A stretch of DNA of 64,000 nucleotides, taken from the NCBI RefSeq assembly GCF_044324875.1, contig NZ_CP172185.1, one strand, 5' to 3'. Made by a program: the position numbers and the translations under genes. The notes below the pieces were generated by a model that ran no database searches, was not told the origin of the DNA, and saw only the letters and a program-made list of their open reading frames with translations. Positions within the stretch are counted from its first letter, which is position 1. Each line of letters opens with the position of its first letter. Source of the stretch: Escherichia coli. GTDB taxonomy: Bacteria > Pseudomonadota > Gammaproteobacteria > Enterobacterales > Enterobacteriaceae. Shown here in pieces: positions 24,938 to 64,000 of this stretch.

Positions 24938-25055
24938 TTAGTGACAAGCAGAGCAGAAGCACGCGACGGTGCGCATTTCCCCTCACCCTAACCTCTCCCA
25001 AAATGGGCGAGAGAATAGTCCGCGCGCTTTTATTGCAATGTCATCAATCGTTTAA

Positions 25056-25830: not shown

Positions 25831-27036
25831 TTAGCGTAAGTTAACCAGCGTGTTGAGGATCTGGTCCTGGGTTTTGATGGTCTGGGCGTTAGACTGATAG
25901 TTACGCTGAGCAACGATCATATTGACCAGTTCTTTACTGAGATCGACGTTGGACGCTTCCAGCGCACCGTTGGTCAGGGTGCCAAAGTTGCCCGTCCCGG
26001 CTGTCCCTAACAGCGCCACGCCAGAAGATTGCGTAGCGGACCAGACGTTGTCGCCTTCGGATGCCAGACCTTCGTTGTTGGCAAAGTTCGCCAGTACAAT
26101 CTGCCCCAGCAGTTGGGTTTGTTCGTTGGAATAGTTGCCGACAACCGTACCGTCATCATTGATTTGATAACTCACCAGATCGCCCGGTTTGTAGCCGTTC
26201 TGGGTGGTTGCCACAATGTTGTTAGCACCGGTATTTTGCTGCATGGAGTTGAGGAAACTCAGGCTAAACGTGGCGGGATCTGCGCCGTTAATTGCGCCAG
26301 TGGAAATATTCGCTGTTGGATCTGAGGTCAGAACGCCATTGGCATTAAACACCAGTGTTGTCGCTGTCTTCGCAATGCTGTTTGGATCACTACTATCCTG
26401 GGTGTAGACCTGCCAGTTATTATCCCCGGTCTTCACAAAGTAGACGCTCATGTCATGAGCATTACCCTGACTATCGAAAACAGTCACCGAACCTTTTTTG
26501 TTATAGCTATCCGCATTGCTGGCATCAAATGCGTTAACAGAGGGAAGCGGATCACTGGAATTCAGGTTGATCTGCATCGACGCCGTGGTGGTAGTTTTCG
26601 CTGCCATCAGGGTATTCGGAATCGAAATATTGGTCGGATTCGCCCCTTGCTGAATAGTCGGCGGCGTACCGGTTGCCGGGTAACCCGTCAGCTGTAAACC
26701 TTGCATATTCACCAGGTTACGGTTTTCATCCAGCTTAAATTGTCCGTTACGGCTGTAGAACACCGAACCGTTGCTGTCTACCAGACGGAAAAAACCGTTC
26801 TGGCTGATAGCAACGTCCAGACCTCGCCCGGTGTTGGTAGTCGTGCCATCGGTAAAGTCCTGGGTGATACCGGCAACTTTTACCCCCAGTCCCACTTTCG
26901 AACCGGCAAACATATCGGCAAAAGAGGCCGTGCCTGATTTAAAGCCGTAGGTGGCGGAGTTGGCGATATTGTTGCCAATAACATCGAGGTTGGTGGCGGC
27001 AGCGTTTAATCCGCTAACCGCTTGAGAAAAGGCCAT
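25831..27036 (-). CDS. flgE: Flagellar hook protein
   Basis: 401-aa ORF, hook family termini. Confidence 0.96.
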   Translation of the reverse strand: MAFSQAVSGLNAAATNLDVIGNNIANSATYGFKSGTASFADMFAGSKVGLGVKVAGITQDFTDGTTTNTGRGLDVAISQNGFFRLVDSNGSVFYSRNGQFKLDENRNLVNMQGLQLTGYPATGTPPTIQQGANPTNISIPNTLMAAKTTTTASMQINLNSSDPLPSVNAFDASNADSYNKKGSVTVFDSQGNAHDMSVYFVKTGDNNWQVYTQDSSDPNSIAKTATTLVFNANGVLTSDPTANISTGAINGADPATFSLSFLNSMQQNTGANNIVATTQNGYKPGDLVSYQINDDGTVVGNYSNEQTQLLGQIVLANFANNEGLASEGDNVWSATQSSGVALLGTAGTGNFGTLTNGALEASNVDLSKELVNMIVAQRNYQSNAQTIKTQDQILNTLVNLR

Positions 27037-44122: not shown

Positions 44123-45326
44123 ATGTCACCCTGTGAAAATGACACCCCTATAAACTGGAAACGAAACCTGATCGTCGCCTGGCTAGGCTGTTTTCTTACG
44201 GGTGCCGCCTTCAGCCTGGTAATGCCCTTCTTACCCCTCTACGTTGAGCAGCTTGGCGTTACGGGCCACTCCGCCTTGAATATGTGGTCCGGTATTGTCT
44301 TCAGCATTACATTTTTATTTTCGGCCATCGCCTCACCGTTTTGGGGTGGACTCGCCGACCGTAAAGGCCGAAAACTCATGCTATTACGCTCTGCCCTCGG
44401 CATGGGCATCGTGATGGTGTTGGCAGTTTTTGATCCTACGGGCGCTTCTTGGGTTACTTGGCGGATTTGTCCCCAACGCTAATGCTCTTATCGCCACACA
44501 AGTACCACGTAATAAAAGCGGCTGGGCGCTGGGGACGCTTTCCACAGGCGGCGTTAGCGGTGCGTTGCTCGGCCCAATGGCTGGCGGTTTGCTTGCCGAT
44601 AGCTACGGCTTACGTCCGGTATTCTTTATTACCGCCAGTGTGCTCATACTCTGCTTTTTCGTCACCCTGTTTTGCATCAGAGAAAAATTCCAGCCGGTCA
44701 GCAAAAAAGAGATGCTGCACATGCGGGAAGTGGTGACATCACTTAAAAAACCGAAACTGGTACTCAGCCTGTTTGTCACTACGTTAATCATCCAGGTGGC
44801 GACGGGCTCAATTGCCCCCATTCTGACGCTGTATGTCCGCGAACTGGCGGGTAACGTCAGTAACGTCGCCTTTATCAGTGGCATGATCGCCTCGGTGCCA
44901 GGCGTGGCGGCTCTGCTGAGTGCACCACGACTCGGCAAACTTGGCGATCGAATCGGACCCGAAAAGATCCTGATTACGGCGCTGATCTTTTCTGTACTGC
45001 TATTGATCCCAATGTCTTACGTTCAGACGCCATTACAACTTGGGATTTTACGTTTTTTGCTCGGTGCCGCCGATGGTGCACTACTCCCCGCCGTACAGAC
45101 ACTGTTGGTTTACAACTCGAGCAACCAAATCGCCGGGCGTATCTTCAGCTATAACCAGTCGTTTCGTGATATTGGAAACGTTACCGGACCATTGATGGGA
45201 GCCGCGATTTCAGCGAACTACGGTTTCAGAGCGGTATTTCTCGTCACCGCTGGCGTAGTGTTATTCAACGCAGTCTATTCATGGAACAGTCTACGTCGTC
45301 GTCGAATACCCCAGGTATCGAACTGA
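44123..45326 (+). pseudogene. mdtG: MFS efflux transporter MdtG, disrupted by a frameshift (apparent ~23-nt deletion near 44422/44423)
   Basis: Two ORF-track entries in different frames (44123..44482 and 44430..45326) together match one MFS transporter; first frame ends at TAA 44480..44482 after 19 out-of-frame codons; span of 1204 nt is not a multiple of 3. Confidence 0.85.
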
Positions 45327-53864: not shown

Positions 53865-54199
<335 letters not shown>

Positions 54200-54205
54200 A
54201 TCATC

Positions 54206-54629
<424 letters not shown>

Positions 54630-54687
54630 ATTCTTCTCCCGAAAAAAAACAGGGCTTGCGCCCTGTTTCTTTAATACAGAGGATGTA

Positions 54688-55146
54688 TTAGTACTGATGA
54701 GCGGTCGCGTTGTTACCAAAGCCAACCTGAGTGACGTTAACGCTGGAGTTAGATGCAGTCTGGTCAACAGCAGCACCGTTACCGCCACCGAACTGTTTAA
54801 CTGTCATATGAGAGTCTTTACCGTTCCACTGATCAAGAGTGGCGCTGTTACCAAAGCCACGTTGGGTCAGATCGATTGAGCTGTCATCTGAGCCCTGACC
54901 AACATCTGCACCGTTACCACCACCATGCTGGGTAATAGTAAGATCAGAGTTACGAGCATCAGCTTGCAGAGCAAGTGCAGAGTTACCACCACCGTACTGA
55001 TAAATATTCAGCTCTGAATTCGGGCCGCTGTTATTACCGCCACCACCGTGGTTACCGCCACCGCCGCCGTACTGAGGAACAACACCTGCCAGAGCGCTAC
55101 CGGAGAATACGATTGCTGCAATTGCTGCTACTTTTAAAAGTTTCAT
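54688..55146 (-). CDS. csgA: Major curlin subunit
   Basis: 152-aa ORF with signal peptide and five imperfect S-x5-Q-x-G-x-G-N-x-A-x3-Q repeats. Confidence 0.96.
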   Translation of the reverse strand: MKLLKVAAIAAIVFSGSALAGVVPQYGGGGGNHGGGGNNSGPNSELNIYQYGGGNSALALQADARNSDLTITQHGGGNGADVGQGSDDSSIDLTQRGFGNSATLDQWNGKDSHMTVKQFGGGNGAAVDQTASNSSVNVTQVGFGNNATAHQY

Positions 55147-55186: not shown

Positions 55187-55642
55187 TTAACGTTGTGTCA
55201 CGCGAATAGCCATTTGCGACTGTCTCTGCACTACAATTGCCGTTTTTTGAGTACCATACTGTGTAATATTTGCTTTATTACCAGAACCTTTCTGGATAAT
55301 CATCGCAGTATTACCATAAGCACCTTGCGAAATACTGGCATCGTTGGCATTGCCCGCCTGATCAATATATGCAAGGTTATAATCTCCTGTCTGGTCAATC
55401 TTTGCCCGGTTGCTACTACCTTCTTGCGCAACAACCGCCAAAAGTTTTGAGCCTCCCTGCCGTAACTGAGCACTATTATTAGTCCCAGCTTGACCAATTA
55501 TGGCTGCCTGATTAAATGAAGACTTACTCAATTCATTTACCGCGAAGTTATATTCTGAATTAGCTAAATCATAACCTGCTGCGGCTGCAATCCCAGGCGC
55601 ACCCAGTATTGTTAACATCATAAATAACAATTTGTTTTTCAT
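55187..55642 (-). CDS. csgB: Minor curlin / nucleator
   Basis: ORF 55187..55669 trimmed to MKNKLLFMMLTILG.. (151 aa); curlin repeats. Confidence 0.95.
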   Translation of the reverse strand: MKNKLLFMMLTILGAPGIAAAAGYDLANSEYNFAVNELSKSSFNQAAIIGQAGTNNSAQLRQGGSKLLAVVAQEGSSNRAKIDQTGDYNLAYIDQAGNANDASISQGAYGNTAMIIQKGSGNKANITQYGTQKTAIVVQRQSQMAIRVTQR

Positions 55643-56396: not shown

Positions 56397-57047
<651 letters not shown>

Positions 57048-57051
57048 AGCC

Positions 57052-57441
57052 ATGAAACGTTATTTACGCTGGATTGTGGCGGCAGAATTTCTGTTCGCCG
57101 CAGGGAATCTTCACGCCGTTGAGGTAGAAGTCCCGGGATTGTTAACTGACCATACTGTTTCATCTATTGGCCATGATTTTTACCGAGCCTTTAGTGATAA
57201 ATGGGAAAGTGACTATACGGGTAACTTAACGATTAATGAAAGGCCCAGTGCACGATGGGGAAGTTGGATCACAATAACGGTCAATCAGGACGTTATTTTC
57301 CAGACTTTTTTATTCCCGTTGAAAAGAGACTTCGAGAAAACTGTCGTCTTTGCACTGATTCAAACTGAAGAAGCACTAAATCGTCGCCAGATAAATCAGG
57401 CGTTATTAAGTACGGGCGATTTGGCGCATGATGAATTCTAA
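57052..57441 (+). CDS. csgE: Curli secretion specificity factor
   Basis: 129-aa ORF with signal peptide. Confidence 0.94.
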
Positions 57442-57465
57442 ATAAAAAATTGTTCGGAGGCTGCA

Positions 57466-57882
57466 ATGCGTGTCAAACATGCAGTAGTTCTACTCATGCT
57501 TATTTCGCCATTAAGTTGGGCTGGAACCATGACTTTCCAGTTCCGTAATCCAAACTTTGGTGGTAACCCAAATAATGGCGCTTTTTTATTAAATAGCGCT
57601 CAGGCCCAAAACTCTTATAAAGATCCGAGCTATAACGATGACTTTGGTATTGAAACACCCTCAGCGTTAGATAACTTTACTCAGGCCATCCAGTCACAAA
57701 TTTTAGGTGGGCTACTGTCGAATATTAATACCGGTAAACCGGGCCGCATGGTGACCAACGATTATATTGTTGATATTGCTAACCGCGATGGTCAATTGCA
57801 GTTGAACGTGACAGATCGTAAAACCGGACAAACCTCGACCATCCAGGTTTCGGGTTTACAAAATAACTCAACCGATTTTTAA
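57466..57882 (+). CDS. csgF: Curli nucleation/assembly factor
   Basis: 138-aa ORF with signal peptide. Confidence 0.94.
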
Positions 57883-57908
57883 GCCCCAGCTTCATAAGGA
57901 AAATAATC

Positions 57909-58742
57909 ATGCAGCGCTTATTTCTTTTGGTTGCCGTCATGTTACTGAGCGGATGCTTAACCGCCCCGCCTAAAGAAGCCGCCAGACCGACATTAATGCC
58001 TCGTGCTCAGAGCTACAAAGATTTGACCCATCTGCCTGCGCCGACGGGTAAGATCTTTGTTTCGGTATACAACATTCAGGACGAAACCGGGCAATTTAAA
58101 CCCTACCCGGCAAGTAACTTCTCCACTGCTGTTCCGCAAAGCGCCACGGCAATGCTGGTCACGGCATTGAAAGATTCTCGCTGGTTTATACCGCTGGAGC
58201 GTCAGGGCTTACAAAACCTTCTTAACGAGCGCAAGATTATTCGGGCGGCACAAGAAAACGGCACAGTTGCCATTAATAACCGAATCCCGCTGCAATCTTT
58301 AACGGCGGCAAATATCATGGTTGAAGGTTCGATTATCGGTTATGAAAGCAACGTTAAATCGGGCGGTGTTGGGGCAAGATATTTTGGGATCGGTGCCGAC
58401 ACGCAATACCAGCTCGATCAGATTGCCGTGAACCTGCGTGTCGTCAATGTGAGTACCGGTGAGATCCTCTCCTCGGTGAACACCAGTAAGACGATACTTT
58501 CCTATGAAGTTCAGGCCGGGGTTTTCCGCTTTATTGACTACCAGCGCTTGCTGGAAGGGGAAGTGGGTTACACCTCGAACGAACCCGTTATGCTGTGCCT
58601 GATGTCGGCTATCGAAACAGGCGTCATTTTCCTGATTAATGATGGTATCGACCGCGGTCTTTGGGATTTGCAGAACAAAGCAGAACGGCAGAATGACATT
58701 CTGGTGAAATACCGCCATATGTCGGTTCCACCGGAATCCTGA
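57909..58742 (+). CDS. csgG: Curli secretion channel lipoprotein
   Basis: 277-aa ORF with lipobox LSGC. Confidence 0.96.
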   Translation: MQRLFLLVAVMLLSGCLTAPPKEAARPTLMPRAQSYKDLTHLPAPTGKIFVSVYNIQDETGQFKPYPASNFSTAVPQSATAMLVTALKDSRWFIPLERQGLQNLLNERKIIRAAQENGTVAINNRIPLQSLTAANIMVEGSIIGYESNVKSGGVGARYFGIGADTQYQLDQIAVNLRVVNVSTGEILSSVNTSKTILSYEVQAGVFRFIDYQRLLEGEVGYTSNEPVMLCLMSAIETGVIFLINDGIDRGLWDLQNKAERQNDILVKYRHMSVPPES

Positions 58743-61940: not shown

Positions 61941-62028
61941 GGTGAGGTGTCCGAGTGGCTGAAGGAGCACGCCTGGAAAGTGTGTATACGGCAACGTATC
62001 GGGGGTTCGAATCCCCCCCTCACCGCCA
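61941..62028 (+). tRNA. serX: tRNA-Ser (anticodon GGA)
   Basis: 88-nt sequence GGTGAGGTGTCCGAGTGGCTGAAGGAGCACGCCTGGAAAGTGTGTATACGGCAACGTATCGGGGGTTCGAATCCCCCCCTCACCGCCA with long variable arm and encoded CCA. Confidence 0.97.
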
Positions 62029-62036
62029 GATATTGA

Positions 62037-62069
62037 GCGCATGTTATTGTTTAACATGCGCTTTTTTTT
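62037..62069 (+). terminator. Rho-independent terminator of serX
   Basis: Hairpin gcgcatgtta-ttgtt-taacatgcgc followed by T8. Confidence 0.8.
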
Positions 62070-62180
62070 ATTTTTCCTTCCAGGCAGTATGCCACAGGGT
62101 ATGCCATCTGAAACCGGTTTGTATGAGCCTCGATCACATCTTATCAGACAATTTCCGATCTTTGAGCATACAGGGCAAAG

Positions 62181-63023
62181 CTATACTGCCAGCATGTCAG
62201 GATAGTGTCTGACGATAATATCATTCAGTCTGTCAACCAGTTCCGGTTTCCTGAACGTGATATGCGCGGAGCCTTTCCTGAAGTATCTGATGCTGAACAT
62301 CTCATCCTCATAGCATGCTTCACCCTGAACGGACCGGATGTGCTCATCCAGACGAATGAGGATATTGTCCCGGTCAGTGGGTATGGGTTTACCGCTGAAC
62401 AGATACAGTATCCTTTCCAGGTCGGCAAGCCGCCCGGCCTGCGGACCATGGTTCAGACCAAATCCCCACCAGTCCCATTTCACCAGGTTGTTGAGGATAA
62501 TCTTACTGCCGAATTTACAGGGTGACCCGCTGTTGTGCGTCCGGCTCAGTCCTCTGAAGAGGTTGATGACGCCCCGTTCAGCCATTTCATCCCTGTTACG
62601 GTGCAGTTGTTCAGACGTACTCAGGATATTCGCTTCGCTGATTTCCGGAAAATTATCCTCCTCCAGTGAACGGTACCATTCATCACGCGCCTGTGCATCC
62701 ATCAGACTCAGCATCCCGGAGCGTTGCATCAGGTCACGCCAGATTTCACGGTCAAGGTTCCGGGTGATGGCTTTCATTGCGGTTTCCGGTTTTTCCATCA
62801 GCCAGCAGCCACAGCGAAAATCCTGTTTCACGGCCCAGTCCCGGGCCGTTTTACCTCCGATGCTTTCTGTCATTACTGAGATTTCTGCCAGTTGCCGGAT
62901 AAGCCTTTCGGTTTGTTGCAGTGCTTCATTCCGTACCGTCACAACGTGCCGGATACTGGTTGAGCAGATAACGTCCGTATGTCCGTTAAGCGTTTCCGGA
63001 CGGGAGACTGTGATATCAGACAT
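62181..63023 (-). CDS. Uncharacterised island protein, DUF4942-like
   Basis: 280-aa ORF; family assignment from memory of proteins found downstream of cbtA in CP4-type islands, not from a search. Confidence 0.7.
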   Translation of the reverse strand: MSDITVSRPETLNGHTDVICSTSIRHVVTVRNEALQQTERLIRQLAEISVMTESIGGKTARDWAVKQDFRCGCWLMEKPETAMKAITRNLDREIWRDLMQRSGMLSLMDAQARDEWYRSLEEDNFPEISEANILSTSEQLHRNRDEMAERGVINLFRGLSRTHNSGSPCKFGSKIILNNLVKWDWWGFGLNHGPQAGRLADLERILYLFSGKPIPTDRDNILIRLDEHIRSVQGEACYEDEMFSIRYFRKGSAHITFRKPELVDRLNDIIVRHYPDMLAV

Positions 63024-63119
63024 AACCGATATTCCTTTTTGCAGATAAATGAAAACGCCAGCCGTATTCGGACTGGCGTCAGTGGAATGAATCGTGGTGA
63101 GTGAGATGATGAGTGAGAC

Positions 63120-63317
63120 TCACAGGTTCTGGTGCTGAAGCTGCAGCTGGCGCAGGGTGCGGATATCCTCCCTGGCCTGTTCGATACAGGGCAACAGTGC
63201 TGCCGAATCCGTTTTATCCTCATCGTTGTCGAAGATAATGCAGGAGCCGCAGTCGATATTGTCCTGCAGCCACGCAATCAGAATATCCGGTGCTGTTTCT
63301 GTGGTTAATGATTTCAT
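63120..63317 (-). CDS. Small uncharacterised island protein (65 aa) with CxxC motif
   Basis: 3' portion of ORF-track entry 63120..63704, starting at internal Met (MKSLTTETAPDILIAWLQDNIDCGSC..), 20 nt downstream of the preceding gene stop; upstream part of that ORF overlaps the better-supported gene in another frame. Confidence 0.5.
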   Translation of the reverse strand: MKSLTTETAPDILIAWLQDNIDCGSCIIFDNDEDKTDSAALLPCIEQAREDIRTLRQLQLQHQNL

Positions 63318-63336
63318 ACGGTGTCTTTTGTCCCGG

Positions 63337-63825
63337 TTACCAGTCGAAAGTGGGAAAACCCGGCAGACATTCAGCGCCGGCATCCAGATGAATGAGACTG
63401 ACGCCATAACGCCGGATGAGAGTGACAACCAGACGACGAAACGTTTTTGACAGACCCAGGCGTTTAAGCCGCAGAGCCGGGTACGACCACGCATCAGTAC
63501 GTAACAGATATCCGCTGCCTGTAAAATGAATCCATTCTGATTCGCCGTTGTCATTCGTCTGATGCGACAGCGAGTACAGCCAGGCATTGTCCTGCTCCGT
63601 GATATGTGCGGTACTGCAGCGTATGCCGGTAAGGGCCGCAAATGGTGGCATGCAGTCTGCTGAGGTCCGGTCAGATTCATCAGCAACACGAAGGGAACAG
63701 CCATTATCGCAGACCACGTTAATCAGTTCAGCGAGATTAACACCATCGACGTCAGCGACAATGCGCCCCATGTTCAGTGCCTGTACGTTAACGCTGTCGG
63801 CTTCCAGTGTCAGGGACAGTTTCAT
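63337..63825 (-). CDS. Uncharacterised protein downstream of cbtA (YeeW-like position)
   Basis: 162-aa ORF whose ATG overlaps the cbtA stop in an ATGA junction, implying translational coupling with the toxin gene. Confidence 0.75.
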   Translation of the reverse strand: MKLSLTLEADSVNVQALNMGRIVADVDGVNLAELINVVCDNGCSLRVADESDRTSADCMPPFAALTGIRCSTAHITEQDNAWLYSLSHQTNDNGESEWIHFTGSGYLLRTDAWSYPALRLKRLGLSKTFRRLVVTLIRRYGVSLIHLDAGAECLPGFPTFDW

Positions 63826-64000
63826 GGTTTCACCTCACAGTGTTTACCCAGGGTGATGTTGTTCACCATTCTGTAGTGGCTGCGGGTCATCAGGCCGGTC
63901 GCCCGGCGGGCCCGGAGAATATCAATGCTGCTGATTAACTGCGATGAAGCTCCTGCGCTGAATCCCGGCTGGTCGGTACGCACCAGCGCGTATTTTTCCA
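63822..64000 (-). CDS. cbtA: Type IV toxin-antitoxin system toxin, CbtA/YeeV family, 3' end only (gene starts beyond window)
   Basis: Hand translation of reverse strand gives ..EKYALVRTDQPGFSAGASSQLISSIDILRARRATGLMTRSHYRMVNNITLGKHCEVKP-stop, closely matching the C-terminus of YeeV/CbtA-family toxins. Confidence 0.85.
   Translation of the reverse strand, partial: EKYALVRTDQPGFSAGASSQLISSIDILRARRATGLMTRSHYRMVNNITLGKHCEVKP

Follow-up and report, generated by a model that had tools for sequence, protein, structure and literature searches.

A catalogued CsgA variant of Escherichia coli encoded by a divergent, mosaic csgA allele

Introduction

Most structural and kinetic work on curli rests on the CsgA protein of Escherichia coli K-12 (UniProt P28307, as cited in PMC10192328). 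Sleutel et al. (2023) divided each repeat of this protein into motif a (S-$-Psi-$-Psi-$-Q), arc 1, motif b and arc 2. In their N/S-$-Psi-$-Psi-$-Q scheme the $ positions point outward, arc 2 is 4 to 5 amino acids wide and poorly conserved, and the N22 segment, a secretion signal, is disordered and lies outside the fibre core (PMC10192328). The fibril structures 8ENQ and 8ENR are of a Cys-substituted K-12 CsgA variant, A63C/V140C according to our alignment. Gatekeeper residues were listed by Szulc et al. (2021) in R3 (Asp4 and Asp17) and R4 (Gly13 and Asp17), in a paper that compares E. coli with Salmonella only (PMC8151669).

Natural variation in CsgA has been described by Chen et al. (2013), who found that a 3-bp insertion gives the protein of O157:H7 strain 43895 one additional glycine and that it also carries several amino-acid substitutions, which are not itemised. 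The same authors found residue 134 to be polymorphic (Ser/Thr) in non-O157 strains, considered variation in glycine number to be not rare and noted a difference in pI (PMC3874044). Published work on curli-producing O157:H7 concerns a CsgA that differs by S135T from the one analysed here. No relevant CsgA variation was found in Somorin et al. (2018), and a preprint on STEC counted only the presence of csgA. We located no publication dealing specifically with allele classes of csgA, or with balancing selection on the gene or its recombination, which is weak evidence of novelty.

Here we describe csgA in a stretch of 64,000 nucleotides of E. coli DNA (contig NZ_CP172185.1), referred to below as the window, and compare it with K-12, with its closest relatives in O157:H7 and B2 strains and with other Escherichia.

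Results and discussion

The csgA of the window is intact and its curli locus complete

The gene for the major curli subunit is the only open reading frame at its position (Table 1). It is an intact csgA within a complete csgBAC/csgDEFG locus, in which csgBAC and csgDEFG diverge, the order is collinear with K-12 and every gene is of full length. Its product matched the NCBIfam equivalog NF007470 over residues 1 to 152 with 238.3 bits (cut-off, 160), whereas the CsgB model gave only 34.1 bits. Five stretches were matched by Pfam PF07012 (Curlin_rpt), and a regular expression for S-X5-Q-X-G-X-G-N-X-A-X3-Q located the motif at residues 44, 67, 89, 112 and 134, the same five motifs being found in K-12. 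Codons 1 to 20 (MKLLKVAAIAAIVFSGSALA), which we take from established knowledge of CsgA to be the Sec signal peptide, are the same as in K-12 in both protein and DNA. Identity of the two proteins extends over residues 1 to 28 by BLASTP, and the N22 segment of the window aligns with chain S of PDB entry 6l7c, which is the N22 peptide.

The spacer between csgA and csgC contains a hairpin followed by a run of uridines (Table 1). Folding gave a centroid energy of -18.6 kcal/mol and a z score of -4.9, and on this model the hairpin looks like an intrinsic terminator; our scan for consensus terminators did not report it in the csgA-csgC spacer.

Table 1. Coordinates of the curli locus, of the parts of csgA and of other features in the window
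Feature	Position	Strand	Description
csgA CDS	54688..55146	-	Curli major subunit; ATG, 152 codons, TAA
Signal peptide	55087..55146	-	Codons 1-20
N22 segment	55018..55086	-	Codons 21-43 (23 aa here), Gly-rich; K-12 sequence plus one Gly
Five-Gly run	55054..55068	-	GGC GGC GGT GGC GGT; (GGY)n tract altered in length by 3 nt, four Gly codons in K-12
Repeat R1	54949..55017	-	Codons 44-66; motif at residues 44-61
Repeat R2	54883..54948	-	Codons 67-88; protein identical to K-12
Repeat R3	54814..54882	-	Codons 89-111; gatekeeper Asp at repeat positions 4 and 17 kept
Repeat R4	54748..54813	-	Codons 112-133; gatekeepers Gly13 and Asp17 kept
Repeat R5	54691..54747	-	Codons 134-152; Ser135 here, Thr in the usual O157:H7 protein
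Codon 62	54961..54963	-	GCT Ala (K-12 ACT Thr61); first arc 2 residue after R1
Codon 111	54814..54816	-	GAC Asp (K-12 AAT Asn110); final arc 2 residue of R3
Codon 113	54808..54810	-	CAT His (K-12 GAA Glu112); position 2 of R4 motif a, read as outward-facing
Raised-divergence block	54630..55062	-	Versus K-12: 29 substitutions between csgA nt 85 and its stop codon, 3 further ones in the spacer
Terminator-like hairpin	54643..54672	-	Hairpin then U8, in the 58-nt csgA-csgC spacer, just 5' of the csgC ribosome-binding site
csgC	54297..54629	-	Curli chaperone, 110 aa; above equivalog cut-off
csgB	55187..55642	-	Curli nucleator, 151 aa; above equivalog cut-off
csgD/csgE/csgF/csgG	56397..58742	+	216/129/138/277 aa, all of K-12 length
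csgDEF	56397..57882	+	Part of the preceding feature
ymdA	53865..54176	-	
flgF-flgG spacer	24948..25038		Differs from K-12
flgE	25831..27036		
mdtG	44123..45326	+	Junction near 44421
serX	61941..62028		tRNA-Ser(GGA)
End of integrated island	61941..64000		Begins after serX
DUF4942 gene	62181..63023	-	Island gene
DUF5983 gene	63337..63825	-	Island gene

Four differences from K-12 CsgA are placed outside the amyloid core

A sequence-only reading of the window had described a CsgA of 152 amino acids with a five-glycine run (PQYGGGGGNHGGGG) and the segments QADARNSDL and KDSHMTV, all of which are present in the translated reading frame. The K-12 protein that it had given for comparison (151 aa, GGGG, QTDARNSDL, KNSEMTV) proved exact when set against our K-12 reference, MG1655 (NC_000913.3, csgA at 1104447-1104902, NP_415560.1, 151 aa). 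Pairwise alignment showed that the window protein is not identical to NP_415560.1, as had been suggested, with 148 of 152 positions identical and one gap (BLASTP). The differences are four in number, namely, an extra glycine in the N-terminal glycine run and, in K-12 numbering, T61A, N110D and E112H. K-12 CsgA, with its four glycines in the N22 run and with Thr61, Asn110 and Glu112, otherwise has in common with the window protein the signal peptide, the five-repeat layout, all motif residues and the R3 and R4 gatekeepers listed in PMC8151669, every one of which is unchanged in the window.

The same reading had placed the changes in the amyloid repeats. This applies to three of the four, which are found on the margins of repeats, in arc 2 or at an outward position, but not to the extra glycine, which falls in N22. 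Mapped onto the published structural scheme, all four would lie outside the amyloid core: one in N22, two in arc 2 and one at a strand position, residue 112 in K-12 numbering, which the motif scheme predicts to face outward. The changed sites fall where the structural model is tolerant. At pH 7 the mature protein has a computed net charge of -5.9, versus -6.0 for K-12, and its computed pI is 4.67 versus 4.51. Most likely, the four differences change the surface chemistry slightly and leave the fold unaffected, and the variant is, judging from its sequence, most likely functionally equivalent to K-12 CsgA. By analogy with the K-12 protein, it would leave the cell via Sec and the CsgG channel and, with CsgB as nucleator, stack as a beta-solenoid into amyloid fibres.

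The protein is already catalogued in O157:H7 and other strains

Both the allele and the protein are already known. The window protein is identical to RefSeq WP_000771427.1, the translated CDS annotated in strain Rb-50, and to the CsgA of O157:H7 strain TR01. The exact protein occurs in 911 blocks of an assembly index; ten of these loci, TR01 included, were read back, and all translate identically. The suggestion that these are strain-level substitutions is therefore right in so far as they are natural differences between strains, but they are not private to one strain. Rb-50 has the same 152-amino-acid CsgA in the same locus organisation, its csgA DNA differing from the window at 2 synonymous sites. 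TR01 csgA differs at 7 synonymous sites, 7 of 7 lying within nt 366-414 (p = 1.5e-5 under uniformity). Among the complete genomes of our 5,426-genome collection, none has csgA DNA identical to that of the window.

The usual O157:H7 CsgA (WP_000771428.1, strain 86-24) also has 152 amino acids, the five-glycine run, Ala62, Asp111 and His113, but it carries Thr135 where the window has Ser135, so that 151 of 152 residues are identical. At the DNA level, the core of O157 csgA (nt 85-345) is 100% identical to the window, whereas its 3' end is K-12-like and that of the window B2-like. The B2-type protein (WP_000771435.1; NU14 and strain 7/2) shares Ala61 and Asp110 (K-12 numbering) with the window, and from nt 346 onwards the DNA of its gene equals that of the window. 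In contrast, it has 151 amino acids, a four-glycine run and Thr (ACT) instead of His at position 112, and 29 of 258 core sites differ. Site 112 occurs in E. coli in three states, Glu, Thr and His, encoded by codons that are two or three nucleotide changes apart.

The same 152-amino-acid CsgA is encoded in AP027775.1, a 4.48-Mb chromosome, where the curli locus is disrupted by IS-type genes: csgD is truncated, and transposase fragments separate it from csgB and likewise separate csgA from csgC.

The DNA of csgA is more unusual than its protein

The csgA genes of the window and K-12 are 93.0% identical, the 29 substitutions and single indel of 3 nt corresponding to 22 synonymously changed codons, 3 replacements and 1 inserted glycine codon. 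About 6.4% of its nucleotide sites differ, almost all of them synonymously. It is the most divergent of the 68 genes that the window shares with K-12, with a dS of 0.234 (median, 0.047; next highest, 0.133), and its overall dN/dS is about 0.09. Identity to K-12 in the neighbouring genes is 99.8% for csgB, 99.0 to 99.5% for csgD, csgE and csgF and 98.2% for csgC. The divergence begins abruptly at its 5' boundary: the stretch between the start of csgB and csgA nt 84 (580 nt) has 1 difference, and the remaining 372 nt of csgA have 29 (Fisher p = 1.4e-11). Read together, these figures indicate that the csgA DNA is more unusual than its protein and that the four protein changes would be the visible part of a much older allele.

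Two observations concern the neighbours themselves. First, csgB and csgDEF, which adjoin the hypervariable csgA, are unusually uniform across E. coli backgrounds: csgB shows 99.8% identity to each of K-12, O157 and NU14, and csgDEF shows 99.0 to 100% to K-12 and O157. Second, ymdA is 95.8% identical to K-12 and O157, 99.0% to NU14 and 72 to 83% to other Escherichia species, and its changes, 7 replacement versus 6 silent, mark it as fast-evolving.

csgA falls into discrete, mosaic classes

The window csgA was compared by megablast with the 5,426 complete E. coli genomes, which were binned by identity band. Over the whole gene, 2 genomes matched at 99% or more, 385 at 95 to 99% and 4,995 at 90 to 95%. 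The core (nt 85-345), which contains all four protein differences, separated 5,379 genomes into 356 at 99% or more, only 20 at 95 to 99%, 3,488 at 90 to 95% and 1,515 at 80 to 90%. Among the matches listed, the genomes of the highest of these bands are O157-type; the 90 to 95% band includes K-12, with 22 differences at the 258 core sites, and strain W, and the lowest band includes ST131 and NU14. These core bands are discrete classes and form no continuum. For the 3' end of the gene together with the spacer, the counts were 640, 1,149, 3,575 and 2 genomes in the same four bands, with K-12 and O157 both between 90 and 95%. Five csgA matches were on records labelled as plasmids, and 44 of the 5,426 genomes gave no csgA match.

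A table of variable sites showed the window gene to be a mosaic, of the O157-type class from nt 85 to 345 and of the B2-type class from nt 346 into the spacer. Divergence in csgA is 0 to 0.65% within a class and 5.5 to 6.8% between classes, and the same csgA allele is found on 8-kb flanks that differ by 0.4 to 1.7%.

For comparison beyond E. coli, a degenerate signal-peptide pattern was used to retrieve csgA from six genomes, each representing a species. They are MOD1-EC7003, which is close to E. coli proper, and five that fall outside it, namely, E. albertii, E. whittamii, Escherichia sp. E1V33 and two that carry the label E. coli but whose flanks are only 73 to 97% identical to the window. 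The pattern found these six Escherichia loci and no locus of E. fergusonii, E. marmotae or Salmonella, so the outgroup is thin. Identity of the window csgA to the six ranges from 88.7 to 92.8%, next to 93.0% for K-12 and 92.8% for NU14. The flanking genes, in comparison, are 97 to 100% identical within E. coli and 86 to 97% identical to clearly distinct species, ymdA excepted.

Neighbour-joining trees of the core pointed in the same direction as the identities, the three E. coli classes being monophyletic in 0 of 500 bootstraps. The pairings obtained had modest support: the B2 class joined E. albertii (78%), K-12 joined MOD1-EC7003 (76%) and the window class weakly joined SCPM-O-B-8794 (54%). 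Most of the distinguishing residues recur elsewhere: the five-glycine run in E. whittamii, strain E69 and E1V33; Ala at codon 62 in these three, in the B2 allele and in E. albertii; and Asp at codon 111 in the B2 allele, E. albertii and MOD1-EC7003. Among the sequences compared, His112 (K-12 numbering) was found only in the E. coli class, E. albertii having Thr (ACT). No donor lineage with a near-identical csgA was found among the genomes compared, which include six non-coli Escherichia. Taken together, these alignments indicate that E. coli has at least three deep, mosaic csgA classes that are as far apart as the csgA genes of different Escherichia species.

Origin of the allele

Genes for surface structures are commonly mosaic in E. 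coli. We consider the window gene to be an intact and probably functional csgA, a natural, catalogued allele of an old, recombining class whose protein is under strong purifying selection, and we give this reading a probability of about 0.92. The allele would have arisen by homologous recombination of old or introgressed Escherichia csgA alleles, with purifying selection holding the protein nearly constant.

An alternative is that the differences are adaptive, altering the surface of curli or their assembly kinetics, and that the classes are kept by balancing or frequency-dependent selection; a titratable histidine where R3 meets R4, or a change in host, phage or antibody recognition, would be examples. 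Several features speak for this. Three of the four protein differences are replacements, two of them within three residues (110 to 112), and the three states of site 112 lie two or three codon positions apart. Divergence of csgA within a class is below that of the flanks and between classes 3 to 5 times higher, alleles of other species fall among those of E. coli, and the rise in mature pI from 4.51 in K-12 to 4.67 recalls the pI difference noted by Chen et al. (PMC3874044). However, the overall dN/dS is low, the changed positions are those where variation is expected to be tolerated, the net charge at pH 7 hardly changes, and the literature located links no phenotype to csgA alleles. Neutral introgression followed by recombination, moreover, gives the same pattern. 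We therefore regard adaptation as unlikely, although it fares best among the rivals of an old, recombining allele under purifying selection.

A local mutation hotspot, or conversion between the internal repeats of csgA, could in principle have produced the divergence from K-12 with no imported or ancient allele involved. The gene is internally repetitive with GGY-rich tracts, 7 of the 22 synonymously changed codons are glycine GGT/GGC flips, and the indel in the (GGY)n run is of the slippage type. Against this, the window differs from E. albertii no more in csgA (90.6% identity) than in neighbouring genes (csgC 88.6%, csgF 89.9%, csgG 90.6%, csgD 91.6%), the classes are discrete with almost nothing at 95 to 99% in the core, the gene shows sharp breakpoints and mosaic combinations, and most changes are outside glycine codons. 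We rejected this explanation, to which we assign very little probability, because the divergence of csgA between species is ordinary. Sequencing or assembly error, or a decaying pseudogene, has only the proneness of glycine-codon repeats to indel errors in its favour and is refuted, with next to no probability left to it, by the intact frame with its full-length equivalog match, by the exact protein in 911 blocks of an independent index with ten loci confirmed and by the 356 complete genomes that have the same core at 99% or more.

If the old, recombining allele class is accepted, the coexistence of such alleles may be due either to neutral introgression with recombination or to selection on the patch at residues 110 to 112. 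A bolder proposal, which we put forward as conjecture and think improbable, is that csgA is a small island of trans-species polymorphism, in which at least three classes, dating back as far as the separation of the Escherichia species, have been shuffled by intragenic recombination and are possibly kept by balancing or frequency-dependent selection on an exposed patch (residues 110 to 112, perhaps also the N22 glycine run), the rest of the protein being frozen.

The allele call itself carries little weight: it identifies the source of the window as an E. coli other than K-12 with a catalogued CsgA variant. The deep classes are a modest side observation, and the unusually old DNA lineage is mildly interesting. 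Approximately one third of complete E. coli genomes carry csgA classes other than that of K-12, including O157:H7 and B2 lineages (ST131), and the classes in the strains translated here differ at the same few surface positions. Were the classes indeed kept by selection, csgA would be a small experiment of nature, from which one could learn which surface positions are important to a functional amyloid in the host or the environment.

Wider context of the window

The window is collinear with K-12 positions 1,159,649-1,097,562 (62 kb) at only 98.2 to 98.6% identity, up to the tRNA gene serX, beyond which synteny is lost, in agreement with the earlier statement that the source is not K-12. Its best matches among complete genomes are 99.1 to 99.4% identical over 20 to 22 kb. 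Past serX, the end of an integrated island begins (Table 1), with genes for DUF4942 and DUF5983 proteins and, according to the annotation of matching genomes, DUF957 and CbtA-toxin genes. This 2.1-kb stretch is present in 8 complete genomes at 99.0% identity or more, four of them (135, MS 119-7, LR-31 and TUM9803) at 100%.

Elsewhere in the window, mdtG has a 23-bp deletion relative to K-12, where the gene is 1,227 nt long, and is divided into reading frames of 119 and 298 amino acids; it is probably a pseudogene in the source strain. The second most divergent gene relative to K-12 is flgE, with 95.7% identity and about 18 replacement differences, and the adjacent flgF-flgG spacer is replaced by unrelated sequence of another length.
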